A DNA stretch of 64,000 bases, taken from the NCBI GenBank assembly GCA_017409215.1, contig JAFQTD010000015.1, positions 261 to 64,260 of the forward strand, written 5' to 3'. The notes under the pieces were generated by a model that was given only the letters and a program-made list of their open reading frames with translations, made no database searches and was not told where the DNA came from. Positions 3,126 to 61,900 of the stretch are shown here, in pieces; position 1 is the stretch's first letter, and each line of letters begins with the position of its first letter. This stretch comes from Alphaproteobacteria bacterium. Its GTDB lineage: Bacteria > Pseudomonadota > Alphaproteobacteria > Rs-D84. The position numbers and the translations under genes were made by a program.

Positions 3126-3200
3126 TTATTGTTCCTTTGTTTTGGGGTATTGTATATGCATTCTGTCTTGGTTTCAATCAGATATTTTATATTTATTCGC

Positions 3201-4019: not shown

Positions 4020-4094
4020 AACAGAATATTAAATAAATCTTACAAAAATTGCAATCAGATAGTTATTTGTGATATAATACATCTGATATAAAGG

Positions 4095-4580
4095 ATGGAT
4101 GCGATGAAACCAACAATGATGTATGCTATTATAATGGCGACAACTATCATTTTAATGACGGTCTTTAATATTAATTTGTCACCAACAGAACCAATCGCAT
4201 TGCCTGAGGCTGTACAGGCCGGCACACTGTATGTGTGCCCTGCGGCTGATTCCTTTTGGGATGGGTTGGCCAATGCCATGCAAACATTGCGAAAACCATT
4301 GATTATTGCTTTTTGGTTCTCTTTGATTTTATTGATCTTTATCTGGTTGTGGGCATTGTATCAAAACCTGTTAAAGGACAAATTCGTGCGCGATGCGTAT
4401 AAAAACCCATGGGCATATACGAAAATGCTGTTCTGGACCGTTGTAATCCTTTGCTTGATATTCTATACCCCGAACCATTTCAGAACAGTAAAACTTGAAG
4501 GTACAAACACTAATTGGGTACTGTGCGAAGCTAATACACCAGGGGCAAAAGCTGTAAATGAGGTAAATCTTCATAAATAA
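4095..4580 (+). CDS. membrane protein, unknown function
   Basis: 161-aa ORF with three or more hydrophobic helices. Confidence 0.45.
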   Translation: MDAMKPTMMYAIIMATTIILMTVFNINLSPTEPIALPEAVQAGTLYVCPAADSFWDGLANAMQTLRKPLIIAFWFSLILLIFIWLWALYQNLLKDKFVRDAYKNPWAYTKMLFWTVVILCLIFYTPNHFRTVKLEGTNTNWVLCEANTPGAKAVNEVNLHK

Positions 4581-4716
4581 TAATGCTAAAATCTGCGGTT
4601 TTTTAATTATGTACTTGACTTAAAACGCAGATTTCTCTACGATTCGGGTAAGCAGTACAGGAATTGTCCCTGAAATGCTGGACACCTTAAATAAAATTTA
4701 AGAAAAGGAGAAACAA

Positions 4717-4989
4717 ATGAACAAACAACAATTAATTGAAGCAATCGCAAACGAAGTTGACGTGACAAAAGCAACCGCAGCTGCATGCTTGGACGCTTTC
4801 ATTAACACAGTCACAAAAGTTTTGAAGAAAAAAGCAGAAGTTCGCTTGGTTGGCTTTGGTACATTCACATCTGCAAAACGCAAAGCAACAACAGGCCGTA
4901 ACCCACAAACAGGTGAAGCAATTAAAATTCCTGCTTCTACACAGCCTAAGTTCAAACCAGGTAAAGCATTGAAAGATGCATTGAACTAA
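4717..4989 (+). CDS. hup: HU family DNA-binding protein
   Basis: 90 aa. MNKQQLIEAIA...VRLVGFGTF...RNPQTGEAIKIPA. RBS AAGGAG lies upstream. Confidence 0.95.
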   Translation: MNKQQLIEAIANEVDVTKATAAACLDAFINTVTKVLKKKAEVRLVGFGTFTSAKRKATTGRNPQTGEAIKIPASTQPKFKPGKALKDALN

Positions 4990-5006
4990 ACCGCTTTGTG
5001 CGAATT

Positions 5007-5036
5007 AAAAGCCCTGTAATTACGGGGCTTTTTTTA
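5007..5036 (+). terminator. rho-independent terminator of hup
   Basis: AAAAGCCCTGTAATTACGGGGCTTTTTTT. Confidence 0.8.
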
Positions 5037-5116
5037 TTGCGAAAAATAAATTGGGATATTTTTGAAAAAAGTACTTGCATTTATTTCTGTGATAGTATAT
5101 CATTAGCAACGCTTTA

Positions 5117-5193
5117 GGGGTTGTAGCTCAGCTGGTTAGAGCGTCTGCCTGTCACGCAGAAGGTCGCGGGTTCGAGCCCCGTCAATCCCGCCA
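5117..5193 (+). tRNA. tRNA-Asp (GTC)
   Basis: Cloverleaf: acceptor GGGGTTG/CAATCCC, anticodon loop CTGTCAC, T-loop GGTTCGAGCCC, encoded CCA. Confidence 0.95.
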
Positions 5194-5285
5194 GTATTTA
5201 CCGCAGTTTCCTGCGGTTTTTCTTTTGTTTGTATGTAAAAAACGCACACAGATAAATTGCGTTTGTAGACTATATTTCGTCCGTT

Positions 5286-5651
5286 TTAATACGATGTAAA
5301 ATAAACAGGTAAAACACTGGCGTCTACGCAATAATTATGAATATTTAAAAAAGACGCATCTATGACAACATCTTTGTAAAATTTAACTAAAAATTTACAT
5401 TCGACCTCTGTTCTGTAACCGCTATCCACAGACAGGTATTTGTGGGTTGTATATTCTAGAAACCTATTTTTATCTACTTTATAAGTTGCAGACGGAATAC
5501 CCAGCAGGCTTATAACATCGCTCTCTGTTTGACCAACTAAATTGGCTAAGCGACTTTCTATTATTTTCCAATTATCAGAATACACGTCACTATATGCAAC
5601 CTTATGACAAAAAATAAAAAACATCATAAATGCGCTGATAATTTTTTTCAT
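5286..5651 (-). CDS. small secreted protein, unknown
   Basis: 121 aa with N-terminal signal-like MKKIISAFMMFFIFCHKVAYS. Confidence 0.5.
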   Translation of the reverse strand: MKKIISAFMMFFIFCHKVAYSDVYSDNWKIIESRLANLVGQTESDVISLLGIPSATYKVDKNRFLEYTTHKYLSVDSGYRTEVECKFLVKFYKDVVIDASFLNIHNYCVDASVLPVYFTSY

Positions 5652-5771
5652 ACATTATCCCCTTGTGCGTGACAGTTTTATGTTAGGGAAAAATATCGCA
5701 AATTGCAAATTTTATTTATAAAAAAACAGCACCTGATTTTGGTGCTGTTTCAATGTCAGAGCAATAAATTA

Positions 5772-7124
5772 CTATCTTTGACGTTTTTGCAACATACGTT
5801 TTCTGCGGGCAAGCGCAACAATACCAGCACTAAGCACTAATGCACTTGCACTATATACTATCGCAGTGTTACGCTTTATTTTGTATTTGTGCGTGGCTAC
5901 TTTTAACGCGTCTTTTGCTGCATCTGTTTCATTGAACGATATAGATAAATTTAAATTATTTATCGCTTTTCTAGGCTTTCCCATCGCAGAGTACGCTACA
6001 CCAATGTTGTAATGCGCAGCCCCATACTGCTTGCTGGACACAGAGTACTTTAATGCTTTTTTTCCTGCGTTTAATGCGGTTTTGTAATCGCAATTTTGAT
6101 ACGCAATATAGGAAATATCATTTTGAGTGTCCGCATTTTTACTGTTTTCTTCATTCCTGGTTTCTATGGCTTGCTTTGCGTTATATCTTTTTGTCTCGTC
6201 TTCTGTTTTACGCTTTGTTTTTTTAAGTTTTTTACCAGAAACCTCGTTGTAAATATACTCTGGGACAATATCTTTAACTAATTTACATTCATGACGTATT
6301 TTTACAAATTTTTCAGCGTTTGCGTCCCAAACTCGTGTACTTACAATTCTTTCTTTTTTTGCTATTTCTAGATAGTTATCAATATTTTGAAAATTCCAAC
6401 TATAAAAATTTTTATCCACGTTGCTGACTAATCCTTCCCACGATTCAATATTATAACAACCTTCGGTGCGTAAATCCAACAAGTCAGAAAATTCTATTTC
6501 GCCCTCCATCAACGCAGCAAAAAAATATAGTCTTTTTAATACGCCTTTTTGTTGACGGAAACCCGTCAAATATGGTGTCAATTCAGCGCCTGTTTTTCCC
6601 TTGTTCAACTGCTTCAAATATTCCGATTCTTTGAAACTTTTCCCACCAATGCAATACCTAAACACGCACGTTGTTAACATTGTGTTTTCATCCATTGGCA
6701 CCTTTACGTATTTTTGAATATCTTTTAAAATTTCAATCGTCATATAACGCCCCTTGTAACGGTCAGATTCTGACAAACTTGGTACAGGGGTATCTTTTGT
6801 TACTTTTTTATAGGTTCCGTTTGGTTCATATAAAATAGTAAGCCCATGACCAGTTGTTAAAGTACCGCCACCATCCTTGTATATGTACGGATAGTAATTT
6901 TCAACAAATGCCAACCCGAATTTAATTTTACTGCGCAAACTTTCAAATAGTTCTGTATTGTATTTCTCTACACTACTTTTATCGGTTCCTGTGAGAACTA
7001 ATTCCGTTCTATCATCTTCAGAATCATCTGATTCAGAATCCCTAGTTGAACAACTTGGCGCCCCCATCAGCATACCTGTCATGATGCCACCCCATAATAA
7101 TTTTTTTAACTTTGTCTTTTCCAT
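5772..7124 (-). CDS. lipoprotein with lysozyme-like (GH24-like) domain, TPR segment and C-terminal TM anchor
   Basis: Start chosen at MEKTKLKK (RBS AAGGA), lipobox-like GAPSC. E-x8-YKDGGGTLTTGHG resembles the T4-lysozyme E..D..T motif. TPR-like AAHYNIGVAYSAMGKPRKAI. Hydrophobic tail before RRKRMLQKRQR. Confidence 0.5.
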   Translation of the reverse strand: MEKTKLKKLLWGGIMTGMLMGAPSCSTRDSESDDSEDDRTELVLTGTDKSSVEKYNTELFESLRSKIKFGLAFVENYYPYIYKDGGGTLTTGHGLTILYEPNGTYKKVTKDTPVPSLSESDRYKGRYMTIEILKDIQKYVKVPMDENTMLTTCVFRYCIGGKSFKESEYLKQLNKGKTGAELTPYLTGFRQQKGVLKRLYFFAALMEGEIEFSDLLDLRTEGCYNIESWEGLVSNVDKNFYSWNFQNIDNYLEIAKKERIVSTRVWDANAEKFVKIRHECKLVKDIVPEYIYNEVSGKKLKKTKRKTEDETKRYNAKQAIETRNEENSKNADTQNDISYIAYQNCDYKTALNAGKKALKYSVSSKQYGAAHYNIGVAYSAMGKPRKAINNLNLSISFNETDAAKDALKVATHKYKIKRNTAIVYSASALVLSAGIVALARRKRMLQKRQR

Positions 7125-7286
7125 ATTAAATCCTTTTTGTTCTTTACACCAACACACACATGTATATAGTACTTTTTTTTTAATTGTCAAGTATATTTTC
7201 GGTCGATAGGTGCTTTTTCTTGTTTATTATTCTATTTTTTTGTTTATAATTAACGTTAAGGATTTAATAACTAAAAAGGAGATATT

Positions 7287-7763
7287 ATGAAATTTAAACT
7301 GATTGCAGCAGGAATTTGTGCGTTGGCACTGGGGGCGTGCGGCGACGGCACACAAAACCCAGATGTATTAAAAGGCTTAAACTTTGTTTCCGCGCAACCC
7401 GGTGTTGATATAACCATTTCTTTTGACCCAACAGAAATGCGCGTTTATGGCGGTGTCGTCAACAGATATAATGGCGCATATACCGCAGATGGCGATAATA
7501 TCAAATTCGATGGGTTCGCATCAACTATGATGATGGGCGCGCCAGAGGCAATGGAAACAGAACAAGAATACTTTCAGTTTATGCCAACGGTTGAAAAGTA
7601 TACCCTTGCAGATGGCAAGTTAACTTTAATCGCGAATGATGGCAAAGAAATTATCTTTACCCAGGTTGAAACACTGCCGGAACAACAGAACGAACAGCCC
7701 GCAGAACAACCTGCGGATGCGCCTGCGCCAGCAGAAACCGCGGAACAACAACCTGCGAAATAA
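7287..7763 (+). CDS. META/HslJ-like lipoprotein
   Basis: Lipobox LALGAC. YNGAYTADGDNIKFDGFASTMMMG...EKYTLADGKLTL is typical of META domains. P/Q/E-rich tail. Confidence 0.6.
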   Translation: MKFKLIAAGICALALGACGDGTQNPDVLKGLNFVSAQPGVDITISFDPTEMRVYGGVVNRYNGAYTADGDNIKFDGFASTMMMGAPEAMETEQEYFQFMPTVEKYTLADGKLTLIANDGKEIIFTQVETLPEQQNEQPAEQPADAPAPAETAEQQPAK

Positions 7764-7837
7764 AAAACATCTTATTTACTTGACAACGGGGTCAGAAAAA
7801 AGTATAATTTGCCGGCATTAAAGAATACGGCAGTTTT

Positions 7838-7913
7838 GGCCCCATCGTCTAGAGGCCTAGGACACCGCCCTTTCAAGGCGAGAACACCGGTTCGAATCCG
7901 GTTGGGGCTGCCA
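7838..7913 (+). tRNA. tRNA-Glu (TTC)
   Basis: GGCCCCATCGTCTAGAGGCCTAGGACACCGCCCTTTCAAGGCG...GGTTCGAATCCGGTTGGGGCTGCCA; anticodon loop CTTTCAA. Confidence 0.95.
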
Positions 7914-8075
7914 AAATTACAACCGACCCTTGGGGTCGGTTTTAATTTTGCCTGTTCCCACCGAGACGAGAACCGCAGGTTCGGGGCGCCAGTTGGTGAA
8001 AACAAGTGTTAACGAAGTTTGAACCTTACGTAGCGAAAGGGGCCCATGGAGTGAAAACGGACATGGGAATCAGAC

Positions 8076-8201
8076 AATCCGGTTGGCCCTGCCAAAAATC
8101 AAAAACACCCGTTTGGGTGTTTTTTTGATTAGATTTCTAATAGTTCTGTGAGTTCGTAAGTTGATGGTTAAAAAATGCTACCGTTTCACACATTTACGAA
8201 C
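8076..8201 (+). repeat. cassette-array repeat R0 (tRNA-Glu 3'-end copy + terminator + right arm)
   Basis: AATCCGGTTGGCCCTGCCA (8076-8094) copies the tRNA-Glu 3' end with 2 mismatches. Followed by hairpin AACACCCGTTTGGGTGTT+T7, then TTCTAATAGTTCTGTGAGTTCGTAAG..CACATTTACGAAC. Confidence 0.8.
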
Positions 8202-8207
8202 TGTTTA

Positions 8208-8891
8208 TTATCTTATTTTACACCATTTGTCCAACAATATATTCAAATCATTCATATTGTTGCACACACCAAAAACACCATATTTTTTACATTCTGCTTC
8301 ATACGTTTTCGTATTATTACCCGTTGCACCAATAAATGCGATACAATCCATACCAGCAGCAGTTGCGGCCTTGAAATCATTAACACTGTCGCCAACGACT
8401 ATACAATTTTTTTGTGTATAACCTTTTGTGTTTGACGCTAATAAAAATAAATCTGGTGCAGGTTTGCCTTGTTTTACCATATCAACAGTAAAAAAATCTT
8501 GTTCGGATATATATTTTTTTATCCATTGAAATTGTGTCATTTTCCAAGCATGTTGTTCCTTTGTCGCACCAGTCGCAATACAATGTTCAAAATTATTATT
8601 AGCCATAACTTGTTCGACACCTGGTATAGGTTCCACAAGATTGGTACAAAATTCAAATTCCCGTTCATATATTTTTGCCATAAAATTATCATCAAGATTC
8701 AATCCGGGAATATAATTTTCCACTCTTTCCCGACAGGTTTTGTCCGAAACACCATAAAATAATTTTTGTTTTTCTGCTGGGTTTAATTCTATTTGTTTTT
8801 CAGATTTTAATATCTCATCCCATACCCGAACATGCAAATATTCGCTGTCTGCAATAACACCATCAAAATCCCAAATAAGTAATTTTTTCAT
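8208..8891 (-). CDS. HAD-superfamily hydrolase
   Basis: MKKLLIWDFDGVIADSE (DxDG motif I) and VGDSVNDFKAA (motif IV). Confidence 0.85.
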   Translation of the reverse strand: MKKLLIWDFDGVIADSEYLHVRVWDEILKSEKQIELNPAEKQKLFYGVSDKTCRERVENYIPGLNLDDNFMAKIYEREFEFCTNLVEPIPGVEQVMANNNFEHCIATGATKEQHAWKMTQFQWIKKYISEQDFFTVDMVKQGKPAPDLFLLASNTKGYTQKNCIVVGDSVNDFKAATAAGMDCIAFIGATGNNTKTYEAECKKYGVFGVCNNMNDLNILLDKWCKIR

Positions 8892-8916
8892 TTTTTACCT
8901 TTTTTGCACCTTGATA

Positions 8917-9141
8917 TCATTATAGTACAAATTGGCAAAAATCAAACTTTATTTAAAAACACCTTAATCTCTTTCCCGAACAACAACGAATCACGAATAA
9001 AATCAACTCGTAAATAGCACAGATGGCCCTGCAAAAAATCAAAAACACCCGTTTGGGTGTTTTTTTGATTAGATTTCTAATAGTTCTGTGAGTTCGTAAG
9101 CTGGGTATGAAAAACAGCTCCCTTTTTGCTGACTTGCGAAC
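8917..9141 (+). repeat. cassette-array repeat R1 (full)
   Basis: Left arm ..CTTTCCCGAACAACAACGAATCACGAATAAAAT.., core GATGGCCCTGCA (9022-9033). About 65 bp (9035-9100) appear identical to 8095-8160. Right arm GTTCGTAAGC..CTTGCGAAC. Confidence 0.8.
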
Positions 9142-9176
9142 TTTTTTGTGATATATTTAGATTGAAAGGTTAATAG

Positions 9177-9629
9177 ATGCAAATTATTGAATATTACAAA
9201 TCAAAAAATCAAGAACACTGGAAAAACGAAATAGGTAAAGGTGATTGGTCGGCTGCAAAACTTTTGTATTCTTGGTTAAATACCGATAAATTAAAACAAA
9301 TATGTGGAAAATCGACAAAGATTTTTCTACTTACAGATGGCGATAATTTGGTTTCTTTCGCAATCTTAGCCGAACAAGATGAAATCGATGCACCTGAATT
9401 ATCCCCATGGATTGGTTTTGCATATACTTTTCCAAAATATCGTGGTAATAACAATATCGGCAAATTGATAAATCGTATTTGCGATACATTAAAATCCAAT
9501 AAAATCGAAAAAGTATATATATCTACTGACCATATAGGTTTATACGAGAAATACGGTTTTGTATTCTGGAAAATTATGAACAACCGAGAAGGCAAACCAA
9601 CTAGAGTTTATATAAAAAATCTTAATTAA
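9177..9629 (+). CDS. GNAT family N-acetyltransferase
   Basis: 150 aa. FAYTFPKYRGNNNIGKLINRICD (acetyl-CoA-binding R/Q-x-x-G-x-G/A-like) and YEKYGF. Confidence 0.7.
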   Translation: MQIIEYYKSKNQEHWKNEIGKGDWSAAKLLYSWLNTDKLKQICGKSTKIFLLTDGDNLVSFAILAEQDEIDAPELSPWIGFAYTFPKYRGNNNIGKLINRICDTLKSNKIEKVYISTDHIGLYEKYGFVFWKIMNNREGKPTRVYIKNLN

Positions 9630-9639
9630 AGGTAATGAT

Positions 9640-10536
9640 ATGATTAGTCAAGTTATAGATGGAATAGAATTTAAATTAAAAGAATATCAGGATTTTTCTT
9701 GGTTAAATAATTATGGAACTGTGTTTAATGTTATAGATGAGACAGGTAGCGGATGTATATCTTTTGGTATAAAAAAGGACAATAAAAAATATTTCTTTAA
9801 GATTGCAGGTGCAAAAACAGTTAATGCTGAAATAAGCGAAGAAGAATCGATTAAATTATTAAAAGAAGCAGTAATAAAATACAAAGACATCAAAAATGAC
9901 AATTTGATCAAGTTGGTAGATGCTTTTGAATATAAAGATTTTTATGTCGTAATCTATGAATATGCCGAAGGAGAATGTTTATTTGATCATTGGAATTTTG
10001 ATAGATATGAAAAAACCAAAGAAATAACTCCTTTGATGAAATTCAAATCATTACCAGTAGAAAAAAGATTGAATGTTGTGGATAAGTTGTTTTCGTTTTT
10101 TGAATCATTTATTGACGCGGGATATGTTGCGGTAGATTTTTATGATAGTAGTATAATTTATGATTTTGATAATGATGAAGTCACTTTTTGTGATATAGAT
10201 TTATTTAGAAAAATGCCAACCGTAAATGATTTGGGAACAGGTTATTTTGGAACCAAAAGATTAAAAGCCCCCGAAGAAAACGAATTAGGTGCATCAATAG
10301 ACGAACAAACATCATTATTTACATTGGGTGCAATTATATTTGATATGTTTAGTAATGAATCAAATATAAAAGAACGGTATGCAAAGGGATGTTTTATTCC
10401 TAATAAAATAGATGAATTCGAACTAAATAATAGTGTTTATAATGTACTATTAAAAGCAACAGCATACAATAGAAATGATAGATATAAAACCATCAAAGAG
10501 TTCAAGGACGATTTTTATAAAAAAATTCATTTGTGA
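9640..10536 (+). CDS. protein-kinase-fold protein (Ser/Thr kinase-like)
   Basis: Gly-loop DETGSGCISFG, YFFKIAG (VAIK-like), hinge IYEYAEGE, catalytic-like VAVDFYDSSIIYD, FCDIDLF (DFG-like), KAPEE (APE), SLFTLGAIIFDMF. Confidence 0.7.
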   Translation: MISQVIDGIEFKLKEYQDFSWLNNYGTVFNVIDETGSGCISFGIKKDNKKYFFKIAGAKTVNAEISEEESIKLLKEAVIKYKDIKNDNLIKLVDAFEYKDFYVVIYEYAEGECLFDHWNFDRYEKTKEITPLMKFKSLPVEKRLNVVDKLFSFFESFIDAGYVAVDFYDSSIIYDFDNDEVTFCDIDLFRKMPTVNDLGTGYFGTKRLKAPEENELGASIDEQTSLFTLGAIIFDMFSNESNIKERYAKGCFIPNKIDEFELNNSVYNVLLKATAYNRNDRYKTIKEFKDDFYKKIHL

Positions 10537-10746
10537 TTCATTATATCACAAAATCTGCAAAAATTCTTTTATTTCTTTTCCGAAACATAACAAATCACGA
10601 ATAAAATTGGTTCGTGAATTGCACGAGTTGCCCTGCCAAATCTGATTTTCCGTCCATTTGGGCGGATTTTTTCTTTGTTTTCCAATAGTTCTGTGAGTTC
10701 GTAAGTTGTGTATCAAAAACCACCACCATTTTACCAATTTACGAAC
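10537..10746 (+). repeat. cassette-array repeat R2 (full)
   Basis: TTCATTATATCACAAAATCTGCAAAAATTC..TTTTCCGAAAC..AATCACGAATAAAATTGGTTCGTGAATTGCACGAGTTGCCCTGCCA (core 10627-10638). Followed by hairpin CCGTCCATTTGGGCGG+T-run, then GTTCGTAAGTTG..CAATTTACGAAC. Confidence 0.85.
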
Positions 10747-10823
10747 TTTTTTCGGGTGGTTGTATTGATAATTTTTGTATATTGATATATAATTTGCACA
10801 GATTCTATAATAGAGGCACAAAA

Positions 10824-11348
10824 ATGATTTATTACAATGTAAATGATATCGTTATCAGAGATATGGTCGAAACAGACCCAGAAATTATCACTCATGAAGA
10901 ACATTTGCAAGGCTGGACAGACCAAAAAGTTGAAAAATATACACGCCGATTAAAAGATGTTGCCGACGGAAAATGCGTATCATTGGTTGCAGAATACAAG
11001 GGTAATGTCGCTGGGTATTTCAATGTGTATCCAAATTCAATGGGTGGTTCTTTTGGTGGCAAAGGATTGCCTGAATTGGTTGATTTTGGGGTGCTTGCAA
11101 AATACAGAAGACATGGTATCGGTAATGCTTTAATGCAAGTGGCAGAAGATATAGCAAAAAGATATTCAGATACTGTTTATTTGGGCGTTGGTTTGAATCG
11201 AGATTACGGTTCCGCACAAAGATTGTATATCAAGCGAGGTTTTATTCCAGACGGAACAGGTTTATGGTGGAATGGAAAAAACCTTGACCCGTATGCCGAC
11301 TTGAAAAACGACGATGAAGCCGCAATCTATATGTCAAAGAAGTTATAA
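10824..11348 (+). CDS. GNAT family N-acetyltransferase
   Basis: Start at ATG 10824 (MIYYNVNDIV). VLAKYRRHGIGNALMQ motif A and YIKRGF. Confidence 0.8.
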   Translation: MIYYNVNDIVIRDMVETDPEIITHEEHLQGWTDQKVEKYTRRLKDVADGKCVSLVAEYKGNVAGYFNVYPNSMGGSFGGKGLPELVDFGVLAKYRRHGIGNALMQVAEDIAKRYSDTVYLGVGLNRDYGSAQRLYIKRGFIPDGTGLWWNGKNLDPYADLKNDDEAAIYMSKKL

Positions 11349-11355
11349 TGGACAT

Positions 11356-11430
11356 CCAAAAAATTCTTTAACATCTTTCCCAAACACAAACAATTCGCGC
11401 GTAAACTCTGCTCGTGAATTGCACAGTTGG
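11356..11430 (+). repeat. cassette-array repeat R3, left arm only (broken at the core)
   Basis: ..TTCTTTAACATCTTTCCCAAACACAAACAATTCGCGCGTAAACTCTGCTCGTGAATTGCACAGTTGG, then unrelated sequence. The arm matches the R4 left arm. Confidence 0.75.
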
Positions 11431-11433
11431 TGT

Positions 11434-11588
11434 TTTGATATTGCTTTTTTAGACGATGGGTCACTGTTGGCGATGATAAAGTTCGACCAGAGCATGAAGC
11501 ACTGGACGGCGAAGTCAGAACATGGTATGATACAACACATCCAGGTGAAGAATACGGATGCAGATGTCATGCGGAAAGTGTCGATTAA
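11434..11588 (+). pseudogene. C-terminal fragment of a phage Mu-F/SPP1-gp7-like domain
   Basis: The frame reads CFFRRWVTVGDDKVRPEHEALDGEVRTWYDTTHPGEEYGCRCHAESVD*. This matches the D-x-R/K-V/T-R-P-x-H..LDG...H/P..NCRC signature. No upstream start or N-terminal part. Confidence 0.55.
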
Positions 11589-12066
11589 TTTTTTTATCTT
11601 GTTAATGTGTGCAGCTTGTACGAAACAAGTTGAATATACTGGTGATTTTTCTGATGGTTTGCCAGCACCACAAAAAACAGAAATTTTCAATTTGTCGGAT
11701 GAGTACGGAATAAAACAAATAGACACTTTTTATATTGATGTTAATAATGACGGTGTAAAAGATACTATTAAGCGCGGTCGCTTTGTAACGGGCACCGCAC
11801 ATTCTTATACTTTTTATGATATATACCTTGATAATGGTGAAAAACTGGCACGATTAACAACCCAAGAAAGTGCCGATTGTATTCTGCGTGCTTATAAATT
11901 CCAAACTCAACCATTTTTAATAACAAGCGCGGCAAGAAATGTCGGTGCTGATTATACAGAACCCACAAAGGCAAAAATTGAAAAATTTGAAATCAAAGAT
12001 AACAAAATAGAACCTGTGTACAATAAAGAGCATAAACCGATTTGTGATGTCAGGCATTTATTGTAA
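11569..12066 (+). CDS. putative secreted protein/lipoprotein, unknown
   Basis: Start at MRKVSINFFILLMCAACTKQ. The 250-aa track ORF 11314-12066 reads through the repeat and is rejected. Confidence 0.5.
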   Translation: MRKVSINFFILLMCAACTKQVEYTGDFSDGLPAPQKTEIFNLSDEYGIKQIDTFYIDVNNDGVKDTIKRGRFVTGTAHSYTFYDIYLDNGEKLARLTTQESADCILRAYKFQTQPFLITSAARNVGADYTEPTKAKIEKFEIKDNKIEPVYNKEHKPICDVRHLL

Positions 12067-12082
12067 ACAAGTACATAAATCA

Positions 12083-12120
12083 GGTGGTGAAATTTGATAC
12101 CATTTCACACATTTACGAAC
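12083..12120 (+). repeat. cassette-array repeat R3, distal right-arm end only
   Basis: GGTGGTGAAATTTGATACCATTTCACACATTTACGAAC matches the end of the R0 right arm (..GCTACCGTTTCACACATTTACGAAC). Confidence 0.65.
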
Positions 12121-12185
12121 TTTTAAAAAGAAAAGGTTAGAAATCTAACCTTTTATGCAGTTCGTATTTGTTGTGGGTGTTTGAT

Positions 12186-12605
12186 TTATTTAAACAATGC
12201 TTTTAATTGTTTTTCAGTTTTTTCATCTATCTTTTTACTTTGTAAATGTTGATATGGTTTATCTACTTCAACTTCTTGCCAAAAACATACACTATTATTT
12301 AATATAAATTTAATTCTTACAAGACCATATTCATGAATTTTTAAAAATTCTAATTTATTATCTGCATTCGAATACGAAATTGAATGTAATAATGAGTCAT
12401 TATCATATACTGTTTTATTACCCAATTTTATATCTGTGCCGTTAGTAGTTATGATTGCATAATTTTTATATAATTTTATATCTGTTGTTGGTTTACCTTC
12501 CTCGGCACCATTACAGAAAAAGCCATTTTGAACAAATACAGGTTTATCTGAACAAGCAGTCAAACCAATCAAAATCGGCAAAATTAACAAAGATAATTTT
12601 TTCAT
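12186..12605 (-). CDS. lipoprotein, unknown
   Basis: MKKLSLLILPILIGLTAC lipobox; RBS AAGGAG. Confidence 0.65.
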   Translation of the reverse strand: MKKLSLLILPILIGLTACSDKPVFVQNGFFCNGAEEGKPTTDIKLYKNYAIITTNGTDIKLGNKTVYDNDSLLHSISYSNADNKLEFLKIHEYGLVRIKFILNNSVCFWQEVEVDKPYQHLQSKKIDEKTEKQLKALFK

Positions 12606-12626
12606 TTTTTACTCCTTCGTTATAGC

Positions 12627-12834
12627 ATCATTATATCACAAAATTTGCAAAAATGTTTTAATATTTTTCCCAAACACAAACAATTCGCGCGTAAACTCTG
12701 CTCGTGAATTGCGTGAGTTGCCCTGCCAGAATAACAACCGACCCTTGGGGTCGGTTTTTTCTTTGTTTTCTAATAGTTTCGCGAGTTCGTAAGGTGGGTG
12801 ATGAAAACCGCCACTGTTTTATGAATTTATGAAC
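12627..12834 (+). repeat. cassette-array repeat R4 (full)
   Basis: Core GTTGCCCTGCCA (12717-12728). The hairpin AACCGACCCTTGGGGTCGGTTTT (12736-12758) is identical to the one directly behind tRNA-Glu (7921-7943). Right arm GTTCGTAAGG..ATTTATGAAC. Confidence 0.85.
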
Positions 12835-12886
12835 TATTTTTTTCATTAATTTTATGCTATAATGTGTGTCGTACAAGGAGAAATAA

Positions 12887-13426
12887 ATGAAAAAAGTTTT
12901 ATTGGTCGCTTTATGTGCATTAGGTGTCGTTGGATGTGATTCAACCAAAACATATGATATTACAGAAAGCGTATTGTGCAAATTCGAAAACGATAAAATA
13001 CGTTGCCCTGAACATAATATTAAACGACCCGATAATCTTGTCACAGACATATACAGAGAAAATGCTAATCTTTATCTGCACGCGCATAAAGATGGTGTTA
13101 TTATTTGCGAATTAGACTTTGTAAACGCAACGGATTTTTGTCGCGATGAACAAGGCAATCCTATTAACGGAATAATTAAAAATTACGAAGCGGATTTAGG
13201 ATATTTGATACAAGAAAACATTTACAAAAACGGCAAAATGCTTAAATCTGTTAGTTATTATGAGAATGGAATTATTTCATCGGAAAGTACAGCAGATGGC
13301 GTATCGCGCGCCTACAATAAAGACGGAAAACTGGTATACATAACAGAAAAAACCGCTGATAAAATAATTAGAACAGATTATGACCAAAACGGTAATATTA
13401 CAAATACAAAGGTTTTATCAAAATAA
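12887..13426 (+). CDS. MORN-repeat (YwqK-like) lipoprotein
   Basis: Lipobox GVVGC. Repeated Y-x-N-G-x-x-x-x motifs (YKNGKMLKSVSYYENGIISSES..YNKDGKLVYI), as in MORN-variant/YwqK antitoxin-immunity family proteins. Confidence 0.55.
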   Translation: MKKVLLVALCALGVVGCDSTKTYDITESVLCKFENDKIRCPEHNIKRPDNLVTDIYRENANLYLHAHKDGVIICELDFVNATDFCRDEQGNPINGIIKNYEADLGYLIQENIYKNGKMLKSVSYYENGIISSESTADGVSRAYNKDGKLVYITEKTADKIIRTDYDQNGNITNTKVLSK

Positions 13427-13440
13427 TAACGCAAAAACAA

Positions 13441-13543
13441 CCTGACTTCTTTCCCGAACGATAACAATTCATAAAGAAAATCATTTCGTGAATTGCACGT
13501 ATTCTCCTGTCAGAAATCAAAACACCGCACGAAGCGGTGTTTT
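13441..13543 (+). repeat. cassette-array repeat R5 (left arm, degenerate core, terminator; no right arm)
   Basis: CTTCTTTCCCGAACGATAACAATTCATAAAGAAAATCATTTCGTGAATTGCACGTATTCTCCTGTCA, then the bidirectional hairpin AAAACACCGCACGAAGCGGTGTTTT. Confidence 0.7.
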
Positions 13544-13709
13544 ATTCTGTTATACATTCGTTTATTTCTGTATTATAACTAAAACCCCTATCAAGACAAT
13601 AGTCTTGTTTGTCATTACCTGACAACCCAGCAATACCAAGCAATACTATCGCCCCAATCAGGAACACTACAAACAAATACACTATCAACAGCACATAAAA
13701 TCTTTTCAT
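13542..13709 (-). CDS. small single-pass membrane protein
   Basis: Start at MKRFYVLLIVYLFVVFLIGAIVLLGIAGL, with a Cys-containing tail. Lies 16 nt downstream of the SAA-like gene. Confidence 0.4.
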   Translation of the reverse strand: MKRFYVLLIVYLFVVFLIGAIVLLGIAGLSGNDKQDYCLDRGFSYNTEINECITE

Positions 13710-13725
13710 ACCATGTATGATAACA

Positions 13726-14145
13726 TTATTTTGCCACTTGTCCAGTTTCGTCTTTGACCCAATATTTTTGCAATAATTCATGCGTTGGGATATTTGGATA
13801 TTTTTTTGCTTGTTCACGACCATATTTATTGGCATTTAAATCTTCTTGTATATCAAATGCCAAATCTATTGGATTTTGATAATGGTGTTTTAATGCGTCA
13901 TTCAATTCTCTGAAAGCACTGATAAACTCTGCTGTTTTTTCACCATATTTGCCGCGTTTTGTTGCGTTCGCATTGGCGCGCGCGTGCGCATACTTATCAA
14001 AGCCAATTAAATTTTTCTTACGCATATCTTGATAGCTGTTCCAAAAATCCATACCTCCCAACATAATTTGCTGTAACGGTGTATATTGCTCAGATTTCTT
14101 TTCTTGTAGTACTTCTATTATTTTTTGTTTATAATTTTTATACAT
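13726..14145 (-). CDS. serum amyloid A (SAA)-like protein
   Basis: DFWNSYQDMRKKNLIGFDKYAHARANANATKRGKYGEKTAEFISAFRE aligns by eye with vertebrate SAA [48 protein letters not shown] (recalled from memory). Confidence 0.75.
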   Translation of the reverse strand: MYKNYKQKIIEVLQEKKSEQYTPLQQIMLGGMDFWNSYQDMRKKNLIGFDKYAHARANANATKRGKYGEKTAEFISAFRELNDALKHHYQNPIDLAFDIQEDLNANKYGREQAKKYPNIPTHELLQKYWVKDETGQVAK

Positions 14146-14344
14146 GAAATATTCCTTATTGTTTATTACAATATGCCAAACACCAGTTCACATATTGTGA
14201 TTATTTTTTAACTATTCTAATTAAGAAGGTTTGTTTTTGAAGATTGTTTCCGTGGCAAAATGCAGTTAGTGCCTAACTACTTACAATGCTTAATTTAAAG
14301 TTGACAATATAAAAAAGAAAAAATCAAGTATTTTTTATCTCAGA

Positions 14345-14527
14345 TTCTAAAAAGAACTTAACATCTTTTCCGAACGATAACAAATCACGAATAAAATCTG
14401 TTCGTGAATTGCGCGAGTTGCCCTGCCAGAATAAACAAAACCGCATTTTTGCGGTTTTTGTTTGAAATACTTTCAGCGGTTCGTAAATCGGGTGTCAAAC
14501 CCCACCACACTTTCAATGATTTACGAA
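14345..14527 (+). repeat. cassette-array repeat R6 (full)
   Basis: ..AACATCTTTTCCGAACGATAACAAATCACGAATAAAATCTGTTCGTGAATTGCGCGAGTTGCCCTGCCA (core 14417-14428). Followed by hairpin AAAACCGCATTTTTGCGGTTTTT, then GTTCGTAAATC..GATTTACGAAT. Confidence 0.85.
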
Positions 14528-15073
14528 TTACTTTTCCAAAATTTTTTCTAAGATATATTCGTGATGCCATTCGCCATCTATGAATGCGGTATCGTGTAAA
14601 ATACCAACGATTTCATAGCCTTGTTTTAACAGATTGCCCAAAGAACGCGTGTTTTTATGGCGAATGTTGGATTCTAACTTGTGTACATTGTTTTCAGTTG
14701 CCCATTTACCAACAATCTGCTTAAACTTAGTCCCCAGTCCCATTGATGTATATTTTTCCAATATTGTCGTTCCTGTGACCGCAACACGTCCCGACCACGG
14801 ATGGTCTGGCATTTTCTTGGTAATGTTTGCCGTACCTATGACCTGGTCGCCATCAAACGCAGCGACAAATAACCCATTTTCATTTGTCCAATCTTTTACG
14901 GCCCGTTCCCTGGGTGGCAATGGACGTTCGGGATACTGCCATGTCCATTTTGCACTGGGGCCTTTTCTGAACTCTTTCATATACCGCATAACGGCATCAT
15001 AATCATCGGCACGCAATGGACGGATAGTCACAACCCGACCATTTTTTAATTTGAACTTTATTGCACGTTTCAT
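14528..15073 (-). CDS. GNAT family N-acetyltransferase
   Basis: 181 aa. ILEKYTSMGLGTKFKQ (motif A) and LKQGYEIVG. Confidence 0.75.
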   Translation of the reverse strand: MKRAIKFKLKNGRVVTIRPLRADDYDAVMRYMKEFRKGPSAKWTWQYPERPLPPRERAVKDWTNENGLFVAAFDGDQVIGTANITKKMPDHPWSGRVAVTGTTILEKYTSMGLGTKFKQIVGKWATENNVHKLESNIRHKNTRSLGNLLKQGYEIVGILHDTAFIDGEWHHEYILEKILEK

Positions 15074-15173
15074 TTTGATTTCCTTTCTTTATTCAAGGAT
15101 AATTATACTACAAATTTGTATAAATTTCCATTGATAGATGCCTGTGCTGGGGGGGACGGTTGTGCTGGTCGGG

Positions 15174-15260
15174 TTAAAGTTTTATTTCTGTGTCTGTCTT
15201 GATGTTTTGTGTAAACATTTCATCATGCGATACCAATAGAATCGCACCAGTATATTGATG
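15174..15260 (-). pseudogene. 3' remnant of a second ABC-F gene
   Basis: Minus frame reads HQYTGAILLVSHDEMFTQNIKTDTEIKL*, versus NQYTGAILLVSHDEMFAKNINIDRIVCL* at the end of the intact ABC-F gene (16450-16540). 23 nt are identical (AAACATTTCATCATGCGATACCA). Confidence 0.75.
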
Positions 15261-15514
15261 TTAAAGGATTTGTTGCCGGACTTGTGCCTGGGAAGCATGG
15301 TGAGTGGCCGGGTTCCGAATATTCATGGGGAAATTCGCGCATCTGGCTGGAACCATCAAAAGAAACAAATACATACGGCCGTGATGATTTTTCAATTCAT
15401 GGCGGGTGGTTTCCAGGTTCGGCGGGCTGTATTGATTTAACATCAAATATGGATAATTTTGTTGCGTTATTTGATTATATAGGGAATGATTTAATCATAA
15501 AGGTGGAATATTAA
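15261..15514 (+). pseudogene. orphan C-terminal fragment of an L,D-transpeptidase-fold (Tlde1/DUF2778/YkuD-like) toxin domain
   Basis: ..GRDDFSIHGGWFPGSAGCIDLTSNMDNF contains the H-x(n)-S/G-x-GC(I/V) catalytic signature. There is no ATG or N-terminal third, and the open frame runs back into the ABC-F remnant. Confidence 0.45.
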
Positions 15515-15529
15515 CAATTAAGGTCTGGC

Positions 15530-15871
15530 ATGGAACAAAACAAGTATTCTTTGATGTATTATTCGGCTGTATTGTTGTCTGGGCTGTTTTATTTCTTTTT
15601 GGACGACTTGGCTTGTTTTGGTCGGATTGCGAAACACGAAGCCATATGGTGGAATATGTGCATACATCTAGATGGTCATAAAGCTGATGTTTGTATGGCA
15701 CGTTATGACTTGTTATGTATTTACATAATTTTGGGTCTGTTAATGTGGTTGGGGTATAAACTTGTCCCTATTTATAAAAAGAAAATCTTTTTTATTCCGC
15801 TGTTGGGAGGATTGGCATGTTTAATATGTAATTTTCTGTATTATTTGATTTTAGCTGTGTTATATTTCTAG
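15530..15871 (+). CDS. small multi-pass membrane protein (candidate immunity protein)
   Basis: 113 aa, 3-4 hydrophobic helices, starts 15 nt after the toxin-like fragment. Confidence 0.45.
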   Translation: MEQNKYSLMYYSAVLLSGLFYFFLDDLACFGRIAKHEAIWWNMCIHLDGHKADVCMARYDLLCIYIILGLLMWLGYKLVPIYKKKIFFIPLLGGLACLICNFLYYLILAVLYF

Positions 15872-15962
15872 TTTAGAAACAATGGACATGATCTAATTAT
15901 CGATCTAATATATTAACATACAAAAACTTACCTGCTTTTTATGGACTAATGGTATAATATGC

Positions 15963-16241
15963 TTGTCGATGGTACTTGTATTTTTAAATGACCTTAATCA
16001 GATTTTATATAATGGAAAATGGGAAGGTCTGTTGAGTAGAATATTTCCATCCAACATACTTATATTTATAAACATTGTACTTATCGCTACCCTGCTACTT
16101 TTATCGGGATTTTATTTACGCAAAATTTTATGTGAGACCCGCCACAAAGTACGAGCCATATTACTTTATATTATGTTTGGGGTATTAGGTTTCTTTTCTA
16201 CTATGTTGATCTTTATATTGTGTATACATATAATGCTGTAA
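15963..16241 (+). CDS. small membrane protein
   Basis: 92 aa (TTG start; alternative ATG at 15969), 2-3 hydrophobic helices. Confidence 0.35.
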   Translation: MSMVLVFLNDLNQILYNGKWEGLLSRIFPSNILIFINIVLIATLLLLSGFYLRKILCETRHKVRAILLYIMFGVLGFFSTMLIFILCIHIML

Positions 16242-16449
16242 TATTGACTTCCCTGTTTTGGGCATTGTATGTAAGTGGTGGGGTTATTTGATTATTTGAT
16301 AACTTCGTTGGACATACTGGTAACCTTGTGGCGGAAAGGTGGCTGGAATCCGCCTTAAAATAAAGCCCCGACAGATTTTGTCGGGGGGGTGATTATTTCT
16401 GGCGGAGTATGATTTTATCACGAACAACCATATACAAATTCCAACAAAA

Positions 16450-17832
16450 CTATAAACAAACAATTCTGTCTATATTGATATTTTTAGCAAACATTTCATC
16501 ATGCGATACCAGTAATATCGCACCAGTATATTGATTTATGGCGTTTTCTAGGATTCCGATGCTTTTTATTTCAAGGTTGTTTGTCGGTTCGTCCAGAATC
16601 AACAAATCTGGCTGATTGTTGCCACCCAGAATCGCTGCCAAAGTTGCCTTTAATAGTTCGCCACCTGACAATATCCCCACCCGTTTCAAGGAAGATTCCC
16701 CACGAAAGCCAAAATTTGCAGCAATCATATGTGCATCGTGTCGCAAGCACCCCGATAAATCCATTATGTTTTCAACTATGGTTTTATTTTTATCTAGCAG
16801 TGACAAGTCTTGATTTATGTATGCAATTTTGCCAAATGTATGGACTGTTCCTGATTGTGCATTTAATTCACCGCAAATGATTTTTAATAACGTGGATTTG
16901 CCAGAACCATTCTTGCCAATCAATCGCGCCCTTGTTTTGCCGTACATTGCAAAATCAAAATTTTCAAATACTTTTTTGTCGCCGTACGAAAACGACAGTC
17001 CAGTAATGCGTATTAATTCTTTGCTGTAAAAAGGCTTGTTAGGAATGGGTATCTTGATGGTTTCGTTTCGCATTTGTTCAGATAGCGATTGTTGTATCGA
17101 CATTTGTTCATCTAATTTCTTTTGAATTATTGCGCGCTGTTTCGCCTCGGTTTCTTGACTTTTGCCACGCAGTGCATTTTGCTCTAAACGACTGCGTCGC
17201 GAAGTATTGATTTCTTTTTGTTGTTTACGCTCGTGATGTTGTCGTGTGTTTTGAGCGATATTTATAGTGTTATTTAAGCGCGCAATCGATTTTTGTGTAT
17301 CAATATATCTGGAATTTATATTTTCTTGCTCTAAACGCTTTTGTTCCATATAAAAATCATAATTGCCACCATATACTTTTAAATGCCCGTTATGTAATTC
17401 TATTATTTTATCCATACGTTGCAAAAGTTCCCTGTCGTGCGAAACGATAACTGCGCCATTTGGGTATTTTGTTAGTTGCTTGAAAAACACCTGTTTGGCA
17501 TCAGAGTCCAGATTATTCGTCGGTTCGTCCAACAGCAAAATATCCGCCCTGCTTTCAAATGCACGCATAAGTGCGTACATCTGCTGTTCACCGCCACTTT
17601 TAGAATCCGAGGCGTTTATTTGTTTTAGCATATATGTACTTGCGCAGTTGTTAATATTGCCAGTTTCGGGCAACAAATCCCCCGACAACAATCGCAATAA
17701 TGTTGTCTTGCCTGTGCCGTTGTCGCCAATAATCGCAACACATTCGCTGTCGCTGAATGTAATCGATACACCGTCCAGCAGATTATCTGCACCATAAGAA
17801 AAAGATACTTTTGATAAAGAAATTAAAGCCAT
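16450..17832 (-). CDS. ABC-F family ATPase (two NBDs, no TM domain)
   Basis: Walker A GDNGTGKTT and GKNGSGKST, signatures SGGEQQ/LSGGELL, Walker B LLLDEPTN/LILDEPTN, and a charged ~100-aa inter-domain linker. Confidence 0.85.
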   Translation of the reverse strand: MALISLSKVSFSYGADNLLDGVSITFSDSECVAIIGDNGTGKTTLLRLLSGDLLPETGNINNCASTYMLKQINASDSKSGGEQQMYALMRAFESRADILLLDEPTNNLDSDAKQVFFKQLTKYPNGAVIVSHDRELLQRMDKIIELHNGHLKVYGGNYDFYMEQKRLEQENINSRYIDTQKSIARLNNTINIAQNTRQHHERKQQKEINTSRRSRLEQNALRGKSQETEAKQRAIIQKKLDEQMSIQQSLSEQMRNETIKIPIPNKPFYSKELIRITGLSFSYGDKKVFENFDFAMYGKTRARLIGKNGSGKSTLLKIICGELNAQSGTVHTFGKIAYINQDLSLLDKNKTIVENIMDLSGCLRHDAHMIAANFGFRGESSLKRVGILSGGELLKATLAAILGGNNQPDLLILDEPTNNLEIKSIGILENAINQYTGAILLVSHDEMFAKNINIDRIVCL

Positions 17833-18080
17833 AAAAAACCCCTGATATTGTAATTGAACTGCCACACATTTCTGTGTGTGATTTATAAAAAAATTACAAT
17901 ATTAAATACTCATTGGGTTTTGCCTTGGGTTGTGTTATACACTGTGTATTCTAGCAAAAAAAATCATAAAATCAATAAAATAGTTCTGGGGTGTTCTGGT
18001 TTGGGGTATTATTAACAGAACTTGACTTTTGTGTTTTTTGTGCTATTTTTGTGCAGAAAAATATAAAAAAAGGACTAGTT

Positions 18081-22696: not shown

Positions 22697-22957
22697 AACA
22701 TTCCTCAACAACAATGTTTGTATTATAGCATATATACCATACAAAAAAAAGAAATAACCGCCCAAATGGGGGTGTTTGATTTTTGTGGCGGAATATGATT
22801 TTGTTACGAACAACCACATACAAATTCCGACTTTTACAGGGAATTTACAGGGATTTTTTGATATAATATTTATATCATCTGGGAACTATCTGGGAAAAAT
22901 ATTGACTTTCTGGGAATTATTTGGTAAAATCTGGTAAAAATATTAAAAGGATTTAGT

Positions 22958-25852: not shown

Positions 25853-25853
25853 A

Positions 25854-26768: not shown

Positions 26769-26819
26769 TATTTATGCCCCCGTGTTTGTATCCTTTCCCG
26801 TAACCAAACATATAGTGCA

Positions 26820-61828: not shown

Positions 61829-61900
61829 ATTTGTTATATTATAACTTGAATTAAAATTCTGCAAGTTATAATATAGCCATATCAATGAAAGGATTTGTTT

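Follow-up and report, generated by a model that had tools for sequence, protein, structure and literature searches.

The window analyzed here is a 64-kb stretch of alphaproteobacterial DNA (GenBank assembly GCA_017409215.1, contig JAFQTD010000015.1), and our subject is an array of repeat units and small gene modules that starts at its tRNA-Glu(ttc) gene, positions 7838-7913 on the plus strand (ARAGORN; Rfam tRNA, 56 bits), and reaches to ~15.1 kb. The 3′ end of the tRNA reads ..AATCCGGTTGGGGCTGCCA and is directly followed by the hairpin AACCGACCCTTGGGGTCGGTT at 7921-7941. The repeat unit is ~200 bp long and consists of a left arm, a core ending in CCA, a terminator hairpin, and a right arm. 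Seven copies of it, full or partial, are present (R0 to R6 below), all in the same orientation on the plus strand, and the modules between them carry one or two genes each, on both strands. A profile built from four unit copies was run with nhmmer against the whole 64 kb; neither this search nor motif searches detected further copies in the rest of the window, and a 23-nt motif of the right arm has four matches versus 0.00 expected. The features are given one per line, where L-numbers are labels of loci or contigs from relatives that were compared with the window and f-numbers denote cassette gene families.

7838..7913, +: tRNA-Glu(ttc), the anchor, attB-like, B-O (ARAGORN, Rfam)
7921..7941, +: B′-type terminator hairpin behind the tRNA (identity with 12736-12756)
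7944..8094, +: "X" segment, GC-rich, 150 nt, a secondary anchor that ends in a 19-nt tRNA-Glu copy
8080..8206, +: R0, core, hairpin, and right arm (model 95-221), i.e., B-O-P′ (nhmmer E 1e-27)
8208..8891, -: cassette 1, HAD-family hydrolase, family f30, also in L027, L028, and L032 (Pfam)
8930..9152, +: R1, full, degenerate core ..GGCCCTGCA (nhmmer E 8.5e-61)
9177..10536, +: cassette 2, GNAT gene (9177-9629) and protein-kinase-like gene (9640-10536), a pair that is a cassette in L019 (Pfam)
10533..10758, +: R2, full (nhmmer E 2e-64)
10782..11348, +: cassette 3, GNAT, family f27, also in L010, L050, and L067 (Pfam)
11357..11430, +: R3, left arm only, broken at the core (..GAATTGCACAGTTGG) and joined to a truncated MuF-gene promoter region (nhmmer E 1e-16)
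11431..12124, +: R3 insert, with a MuF-gene 3′ fragment (~11440-11590), a lipoprotein-like open reading frame (ORF; to 12066), and a right-arm piece (12090-12124)
12186..12605, -: cassette, lipoprotein with lipobox LTAC, without a Pfam family
12622..12844, +: R4, full (nhmmer E 1.4e-64)
12887..13426, +: cassette, MORN-repeat-like lipoprotein, family f47, also in L037 and L058 (Pfam)
13412..13552, +: R5, left arm, degenerate core, and hairpin, without right arm (nhmmer E 6e-18)
13726..14145, -: cassette, serum-amyloid-A-like protein (Pfam SAA, E 1e-20)
14324..14538, +: R6, full, right arm degenerate (nhmmer E 1e-57)
14528..15073, -: last cassette, GNAT (Acetyltransf_3), family f3, a cassette at varied positions in at least six other species (Pfam)
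15096..15130, +: promoter-like remnant of a further left-arm start (ATTATACTACAAATTTGTATAAAT), the eroded array end (minus-strand promoter-like site at 15130-15102)
16450..17865, -: ABC-F ATPase of the ribosomal-protection type, just beyond the array (NCBIfam NF000355, 382.1 bits versus a cut-off of 380)

A preliminary description of this stretch had reported the tRNA-Glu end, the hairpin behind it, and a copy of the tRNA end at 8076-8094, and ARAGORN, Rfam, and the sequence itself place them at the same coordinates. The copy, AATCCGGTTGGCCCTGCCA, is 19 nt long and differs from the tRNA-Glu 3′ end at two bases (GGCCC for GGGGC), while the hairpin is, as had been noticed, identical to the one at 12736-12756 (repeat family D16). 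The reported recurrence of a tRNA-like core also holds, with exact matches to GAGTTGCCCTGCCA at 10625, 12715, and 14415, a variant (GATGGCCCTGCA) at ~9020, and a degenerate form (GTATTCTCCTGTCA) at ~13500, but the likeness is narrower than it appeared: the internal cores have only TGG..CTGCCA in common with the tRNA and carry GGCC where the tRNA has GGGG. Similarly, the repeats listed are real, but the interrupted copy R3 (left arm at 11357-11430, right-arm piece at 12090-12124) had been overlooked, and the conserved arms were recovered by nhmmer, but the left arm extends further upstream, into promoter-like ATTATATCACAAAATTTGCAAAAAT. The single orientation of the copies is borne out by nhmmer matches on the plus strand only, and the gene content described earlier, on both strands, agrees with the Pfam matches of the array genes (HAD, three GNATs, Pkinase, MORN_2-like, SAA-like) together with the lipobox proteins. 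The R3 insert, which is 97% identical to L066, belongs to repeat family D6, and its MuF domain was seen in the homologous family f6.

The X segment probably represents either the degenerate 3′ half of a tRNA or what remains of the attR of a lost island. Similar segments occur in L035, L022, L010, L009, L046, L056, and L200; the segment of the window folds no better than shuffled sequences (z = +1.2) and has no match in Rfam (7800-9200, E<=1).

The unit and its cassettes in related genomes

A left-arm pattern with ~0.07 expected chance matches, scanned against one-genome-per-species data, identified 61 stretches, all from Ca. Enterousia or related uncultured Alphaproteobacteria of ruminant and horse guts. 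The host lineage is the order Rs-D84, with genomes of ~0.75-1.0 Mb (PMC12306168). In 36 of these 61 genome blocks, tRNA-Glu(ttc) lies immediately upstream of the array and in the same orientation; the remaining blocks or contigs begin within the array, and no copy was found on the opposite strand in any of the 61. A metagenome scan added 80 true loci that show the same anchoring and single orientation, some with arrays behind tRNA-Glu(ctc), so that genome blocks and metagenome together give ~140 loci of Ca. Enterousia and its relatives in which the unit is kept. Arrays reach at least 8-10 units (L049+L012, L026+L058) and make up approximately 1% of the genome. One metagenome-assembled genome has unit copies at both tRNA-Glu genes; otherwise, each has one locus. 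The preliminary description had named, as a result that would refute it, a dispersed family of the miniature inverted-repeat transposable element (MITE) or repetitive extragenic palindrome (REP) type, which we reject: there are no copies elsewhere in the 64 kb, genomes have a single locus, or two where both tRNA-Glu genes are used, and only one orientation occurs. Scanning viral contigs twice gave 0 matches to the unit, and on this basis a phage or plasmid as the source of the attP was rejected.

The consensus of 48 full copies has near-invariant blocks (TCTTTCCCaAAC..CAACAA.TC; TCGTGAATTGCACAGaTGGCCCTGCCAAAA; AGTTCGtAAGT; ATTTACGAACT). Over ~50 species, the arms are conserved at the sequence level, and the hairpin is conserved in structure only. 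The arms contain four or five GTTCGTRAA-type motifs in inverted pairs, with pair spacings of 9 and ~32 nt, and the motifs are probably protein-binding sites. The size and the layout of the unit, with arms, core, and hairpin, are those of a lambda- or P4-type attP. Given 80 and 103 distinct copies of the two arms, RNAalifold returned no consensus structure for either, only one half of the left-arm inverted repeat varies, without covariation, and Rfam (window at gathering threshold; 7800-9200 and L013 at E<=1) identified tRNAs only. With no consensus fold, no covariation, and no Rfam family, a structured noncoding RNA gene in the arms was rejected. As a separate observation, some units carry a conserved insert of ~70 nt exactly between CTGCCA and the hairpin (CTATGAGTAGCAGAGCGATTTATCGCGATGCGTCAGGAATGCCGCACAGGCACAAcGTGCCGAGCGAAAC); it was seen in L011, L013 (twice), L024, L027, L037, L041, L058, L062, L065, L068, L080, and several metagenome loci. 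Its fold consists of two small hairpins (z = -2.9), and Rfam contains nothing that matches it.

Cassettes are 0.6-2 kb long, hold one or two genes, and have promoter-like sequences inside them. On the side nearest the tRNA each has a right arm of ~75 bp, at its far end a left arm of ~90 bp, and consecutive cassettes are separated by a linker of ~50 bp that consists of the core (..TGGnnCTGCCA) and a bidirectional terminator hairpin. The genome loci contain 176 in-array genes in 94 families, with 107 genes on the minus and 69 on the plus strand. Small-molecule-modifying enzymes dominate this pool, with several GNAT families, a Pol-beta-type nucleotidyltransferase, a kinase-like protein, HAD phosphatases, a GDSL esterase, alpha/beta-hydrolases, a CMP/MafB19-type deaminase, an S66 LD-carboxypeptidase, a methyltransferase-like protein, and an MccF-like peptidase. 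The ABC-F gene, which lies just beyond the array in the window, is a unit-flanked cassette in L008 and L053. A role in anti-phage defense was considered and rejected, as PADLOC gave only weak PD-T4-6-like kinase similarity.

The cassettes are shuffled and are transferred horizontally. Each recurrent family keeps a single orientation relative to the unit, while its position and its neighbors differ between species, with breaks at the repeat boundaries; the identical gene order in all relatives that would have spoken against the cassette idea of the preliminary description was not found. Cassette proteins are up to 99-100% identical across species in which the flank proteins are 30-70% identical. 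The module of family f11 (GDSL esterase), for example, is 100% identical between L018 and L043 over 978 bp, with the tRNA-bearing flank at 87% and the next cassette region at 69-91%. The presence of near-identical cassettes in species with divergent flanks implies ongoing mobility.

The core as a probable recombination junction

The units follow the layout B-O-P′ / P-O-P′ / P-O-B′, that is, an attL / attP-like / attR pattern, and counterparts of the empty site exist. The first copy is the tRNA's own 3′ end with hairpin and right arm (model 95-220), the internal copies are full, and the terminal copies stop just past the hairpin, at model ~146. The terminal B′ hairpin, GACCACC..GGTGGTC followed by TTTTATTTTG, lies directly behind tRNA-Glu in L020 and L056, which on their sequence look like unoccupied sites, and the same hairpin stands behind the last left arm and core in L034, L037, L045, L010, and L057. 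Likewise, the native flank of tRNA-Glu(ctc), CTGCCA|TCCGCTTTCGCTTACGC (L101, L075), recurs in L030 behind an internal left arm and core that close a ttc array. A precise junction relates occupied to empty sites, and in the case of Glu, Gln, and Met tRNAs, insertion at the tRNA 3′ end is accompanied by a directly repeated copy of that end at the distal junction. Breakpoints are concentrated at model 91-100 and 141-155, and ~10 different unrelated sequences abut CTGCCA at the exact nucleotide. In the comparison with L066, the only partly syntenic relative, identity to the window restarts at CTG|CCA of R6. The difference between GGGG in the tRNA and GGCC in the internal cores fits a crossover 3′ of these bases, which would leave the tRNA functional.

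The strongest evidence for the core as a recombination junction, as read from sequence, comes from variant arrays. Their arms are clearly homologous to those described above (GCTCGCGAATTGCAC; AGTTCGAAAGT..CTTTCGAACT), and their cores match the last 6-8 nt of another anchoring tRNA. One type is found at a partial tRNA-Gln 3′ end, where the tRNA reads ..GCCCCAACCA (..CAACCA) and the internal cores read ..GCACAACCA; the other is found at copies of the tRNA-Met 3′ end (..CGCAACCA), where the tRNA reads ..CCCGCAACCA and the internal core ..CGCGCAACCA. Constant arms combined with a core that tracks the anchoring tRNA is the behavior of an att overlap, unlike what is expected of a regulatory block or of homology exchange alone.

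The regulatory alternative deserves mention in this context. The unit could be a bidirectional terminator combined with a promoter or operator, an insulator that spread by local duplication and rearrangement and whose likeness to the tRNA is incidental. Terminator scoring does pick out the unit hairpins as intrinsic terminators, in several cases for both strands (12 versus 5.0 expected), the start of the left arm has an extended -10-like element (TGATATAAT) directed at minus-strand genes, and the inverted motifs could be operators. Both arms are there regardless of gene orientation, however, and neither the anchoring at tRNA ends, the tRNA-tracking cores, and the breakpoints at CTGCCA nor the exchange of cassettes between species would be explained; we regard this alternative as very improbable.

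We are still less inclined to credit a single-strand mechanism of the HUH or IS200-IS605-like type, in which elements ending in ..CTGCCA insert 3′ of CTGCCA in one orientation and carry subterminal hairpins. Insertion precisely 3′ of a 6-nt target, the strict orientation, a hairpin a few nucleotides past the target, and an imperfect inverted repeat ~18 nt before the 3′ end of the element would all suit such a mechanism. On the other hand, the left-end hairpins vary in sequence, whereas TnpA-type enzymes recognize conserved ones, the inverted repeat of the left arm lacks covariation, and no HUH/TnpA gene was noticed in any locus, no systematic search for one having been made.

The preliminary description had suggested integration at the tRNA-Glu end or a cassette site served in trans. 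The att pattern, the CTGCCA junctions, and the tRNA-tracking cores support this suggestion, but the mechanism itself is something we infer. The explanation that we prefer, with slightly more confidence than doubt, is a chromosomal cassette array that grows on the tRNA-Glu 3′ end by serial site-specific insertion catalyzed by a recombinase in trans, with homologous recombination between the arms added. A circular cassette with an attP-like unit would recombine either at the tRNA 3′ end or at the core of a unit already in the array, and the crossover would take place in or beside CTGCCA, such that the tRNA stays intact and the target is regenerated. Cassettes would thereby pile up head to tail in one orientation. 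The recombinase would be encoded outside the array, and homologous recombination or gene conversion between arms would reshuffle cassettes and linkers and move cassettes between species. Site-specific insertion and homologous exchange probably both operate.

Several observations weigh against this explanation. The linker (5′ half of the core plus hairpin, model ~93-148) comes in approximately eight recurrent hairpin types and is unlinked to the upstream or the downstream cassette, even where the cassettes are 99.5-100% identical; f11 cassettes of 96-100% identity have six different hairpins in front of them and also differ in their downstream linkers. One fixed crossover predicts one-sided linkage, and the unlinked linker is therefore unexplained by the simple model. 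In addition, the f11 module has sharp boundaries (model 149 to ~94-108), which read as double-crossover homologous recombination or gene conversion within invariant blocks of ~30 bp. Neither circular forms nor cassettes present in one close strain and absent from another were found; same-strain contigs, the strain being present in samples such as ERZ28018825, ERZ27256761, and SRR12529055, are identical in order, and the sample contains no clean indel pairs for mapping the crossover. No recombinase is present in the window (regex, phmmer with an XerD seed, tblastn), and the regex screen and phmmer/jackhmmer with the XerD seed show no tyrosine-recombinase signature there, in agreement with the earlier remark that no integrase is in view. 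No recombinase adjoins the canonical arrays in ~861 kb of array-bearing DNA. Finally, the arm repeats (ATGGGGACCG) of an island with a P4-type integrase at tRNA-Met (L212) are unrelated to the cassette arms. The XerD-seeded phmmer/jackhmmer searches covered 1329 ORFs, and the assessment of window genes other than those assigned by Pfam relies on visual inspection plus the regex and phmmer screens.

Some of these observations are what homologous recombination alone would predict. Here, the units would be portable stretches of homology through which cassettes are exchanged, inside a species as well as across species, by RecA-dependent double crossover or gene conversion after DNA uptake, with loop-out and re-integration between direct repeats, and no dedicated recombinase would be needed. 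Consistent with this, the limits of the f11 module coincide exactly with the most conserved arm blocks and the recipient linkers are kept, linkers assort independently of both neighbors, there is no recombinase near the arrays, and a ComM-like gene at 60311-61885 (recognized by eye) is compatible with natural transformation. However, homologous recombination cannot make single-nucleotide junctions with unrelated DNA past CTGCCA. The start of the array at the CCA of two tRNA-Glu genes, which have at most 12 nt in common with the units, would also be unexplained, as would the cores matched to tRNA-Gln and tRNA-Met, the strict orientation, and the conserved short inverted motifs of the arms. As the sole process, homologous recombination thus seems unlikely to us, and in the preferred explanation it acts alongside site-specific insertion.

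Candidate recombinases and further features of the window

The only tyrosine-recombinase match in the 861 kb is a 194-aa protein in L080 that consists of the catalytic domain alone (PF00589). This family is cargo of classical tRNA-integrated islands with the order tRNA, Xis-like HTH_17, N6/N4 methyltransferase, 194-aa recombinase, two small ORFs, P4-type integrase, and partial tRNA. Such islands lie between the tRNA and the head of the array in L080 (Glu), L194 (Gln), and L200 (Met), a location that probably reflects a common target. The P4-type and 194-aa tyrosine recombinases are no more than candidates for the cassette enzyme. The P4-type integrase of the L212 island is not an obvious helper, as its own arm repeats differ. 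The L212 island itself spans 2945-12535 with a 45-nt tRNA-Met repeat at both ends, and further islands were seen in L194, L200, and L208-L211, at tRNA-Met, tRNA-Gln, and possibly tRNA-Pro. The GTTCG(n)AA of the arms resembles the tRNA T-loop (GGTTCGAAT); as a speculation, an enzyme that reads this sequence would let one set of arms serve several tRNAs.

The islands bear on a further alternative, namely that the array is an inactive fossil of integrase-carrying islands, satellites, or prophages at tRNA-Glu that lost their backbone and left cargo between att scars. P4-type integrase islands with partial-tRNA repeats are indeed present at the same tRNAs (L212, L194, L200, L080), the X segments resemble att remnants, and several copies in the window are eroded (the R1 core, R3, R5, and the array end). 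Yet independent decay would not place the same two-armed unit of ~200 bp at every junction in ~50 species, and the island arm repeats differ from the cassette arms. The cassettes are uniformly tiny, no integrase was found in them and no integrase fragments between them, and the near-identical cassettes discussed above imply mobility rather than inactivity. We therefore give decay little credence.

A serine recombinase of 198 aa near the arrays of L008, L094, and L080 was also considered as the cassette enzyme and rejected; it is an invertase for adhesin phase variation and is absent from the window (tblastn). This serine recombinase (196-198 aa) is conserved over the lineage, 0.2-13 kb past the array ends. 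A segment of ~100 bp with AAACCAAGGTT/AACCTTGGTTT flanks, located between it and a YadA-type adhesin gene, is inverted in L189 relative to L191 (9780-9890). The segment is a Hin-type invertible promoter seen in both orientations, and the adhesin is probably phase-variable. In the window, a YadA-like trimeric autotransporter gene lies at 52633-54420, with internal 75-nt repeats at 53848-54093; unlike in the relatives, the invertase gene is not beside it.

Beyond the array end, remnants of MuF-domain polymorphic toxins are found at 15284-15514 and 15530-16241, in addition to 11431-11590 in R3; besides the 3′ MuF fragment in R3, they include a Tlde1-domain fragment as well as small ORFs that are immunity-like. 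The distal array ends of relatives encode full-length MuF proteins of 201-406 aa, whose C-termini vary and which are followed by small ORFs, and the MuF genes are preceded by a conserved promoter-plus-hairpin leader (TTGCTTTTTTATGCGATTTGTGATATAAT .. AGACGGCATTTTGCCGTCT). Two repeat pairs occur in the same region, 15191-15259 with 16467-16535 (87%) and 16383-16445 with 22769-22831 (81%). The segment 15191-15259 is a duplicated 3′ end of the ABC-F gene, which suggests that the toxin/immunity segment at ~15.26-16.45 kb is an insertion that separated ABC-F from the array end. Two large adjoining ORFs (1123 and 355 aa) without a Pfam or PADLOC match occupy 18402-22819 on the minus strand, with the ABC-F gene on one side and a Fic-domain gene (22958-24016) on the other. 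A CRISPR array at 24116-25419 has at least 19 repeats with a 66-nt period, and cas2, cas1, and a 974-aa cas9 (minus strand) beside it (25523-29744) define it as type II, the domains having been identified in a same-strain contig (L005). At 598-699, within the ORF 402-950, there is a perfect 36-nt direct repeat with a 66-nt spacing, i.e., an in-frame tandem duplication.

Relation to known systems

The literature that we searched contains no account of the unit or of such arrays, in Enterousia or elsewhere. Mechanistically, the closest parallels are tandem tRNA-targeting integrative elements and integrase-less cis-mobilizable elements. Tycheposons of Prochlorococcus are islands of several kb or larger at tRNA 3′ ends that carry their own integrase (bioRxiv 10.1101/2020.12.28.424599). 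The arrays discussed here share with tycheposons and other tandem tRNA islands the partial-tRNA direct repeats, the distal displacement of older insertions, the streamlined host genomes, and the adaptive cargo. They differ in having single-gene cassettes without a recombinase and a complete attP-like site in place of a bare tRNA fragment of ~40 nt.

Cis-mobilizable elements (CIMEs), for which the streptococcal integrative and conjugative elements (ICEs) ICESt1 and ICESt3 are the model, are flanked by att sites, lack recombination genes, lie in tandem at the 3′ end of a tRNA or other gene, and probably depend on an integrase supplied in trans. CIMEs are few, large, and tied to a cognate ICE in the same site, whereas here at least 8-10 mini-cassettes can accumulate from an order-level pool. 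With respect to a helper of this kind, the islands with P4-type and 194-aa recombinases share tRNAs with the arrays in relatives, while the arm repeats of L212 differ, a comparison that covers one island in detail and partial genomes. Small modules that depend on Xer recombination at short sites, with the recombinase encoded elsewhere, are known as pdif modules on Acinetobacter plasmids and as integrative mobile elements exploiting Xer (IMEX). Unlike in these, the sites here are co-oriented rather than alternating, chromosomal, and tRNA-anchored, and an Xer/dif-dependent module was rejected since no 28-bp dif-like site of the 11-6-11 type is visible in the consensus unit.

In the preliminary description, the array was called integron-like, which is apt as a functional analogy, but both intI and attC are absent. 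Integrons, sedentary chromosomal integrons, and clusters of attC sites lacking integron-integrases (CALINs) likewise consist of head-to-tail cassettes of one or two genes at one site, with co-oriented sites and a cassette content and order that vary between relatives. Their cargo is also rich in GNATs and small-molecule-modifying enzymes, and CALINs, too, lack a nearby integrase. In contrast to integrons, there is no intI and no attI here; a tRNA gene serves as the anchor, and different anchoring tRNAs go with different cores. No intI was detected beside the array (regex; XerD-seeded phmmer/jackhmmer), where the upstream region contains a META gene and tRNAs. The junction is not attC but a sequence-conserved two-armed unit with a terminator: reading of the consensus revealed no R″/L″-L′/R′ boxes and no GTTRRRY/RYYYAAC, the arms have no consensus fold, and attC-like boxes were rejected. 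Moreover, integron cassettes are mostly promoterless, co-oriented, and expressed from Pc, whereas the cassettes here have their own promoters and both orientations.

These comparisons raise the possibility, which we put forward tentatively and would still rather doubt than assert, of a second cassette-capture platform that is independent of integrons. It would combine single-gene cassettes, a two-armed attP-like site of ~200 bp with T-loop-like GTTCGnAA motifs in its arms, a short interchangeable core that picks the Glu, Gln, or Met tRNA, a dedicated recombinase encoded elsewhere (possibly the 194-aa protein with its two small partner ORFs of 44 and 63 aa), and an order-wide pool of exchangeable genes that includes resistance-type genes. 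The core seems to be retargetable via a 6-8-nt match to the tRNA end, and the short conserved unit could possibly serve as a tool. The array could also be a reservoir of resistance and detoxification genes in the gut microbiota of livestock. Accessory DNA is expected to be scarce in genomes of ~0.75-1.0 Mb (PMC12306168), and the array still takes up ~1% of them in dozens of species. Integrons are the only well-understood case in which single-gene cassettes are stockpiled at a single site; a tRNA-anchored analogue whose sites are built differently, if true, would show that this way of storing genes has evolved repeatedly.

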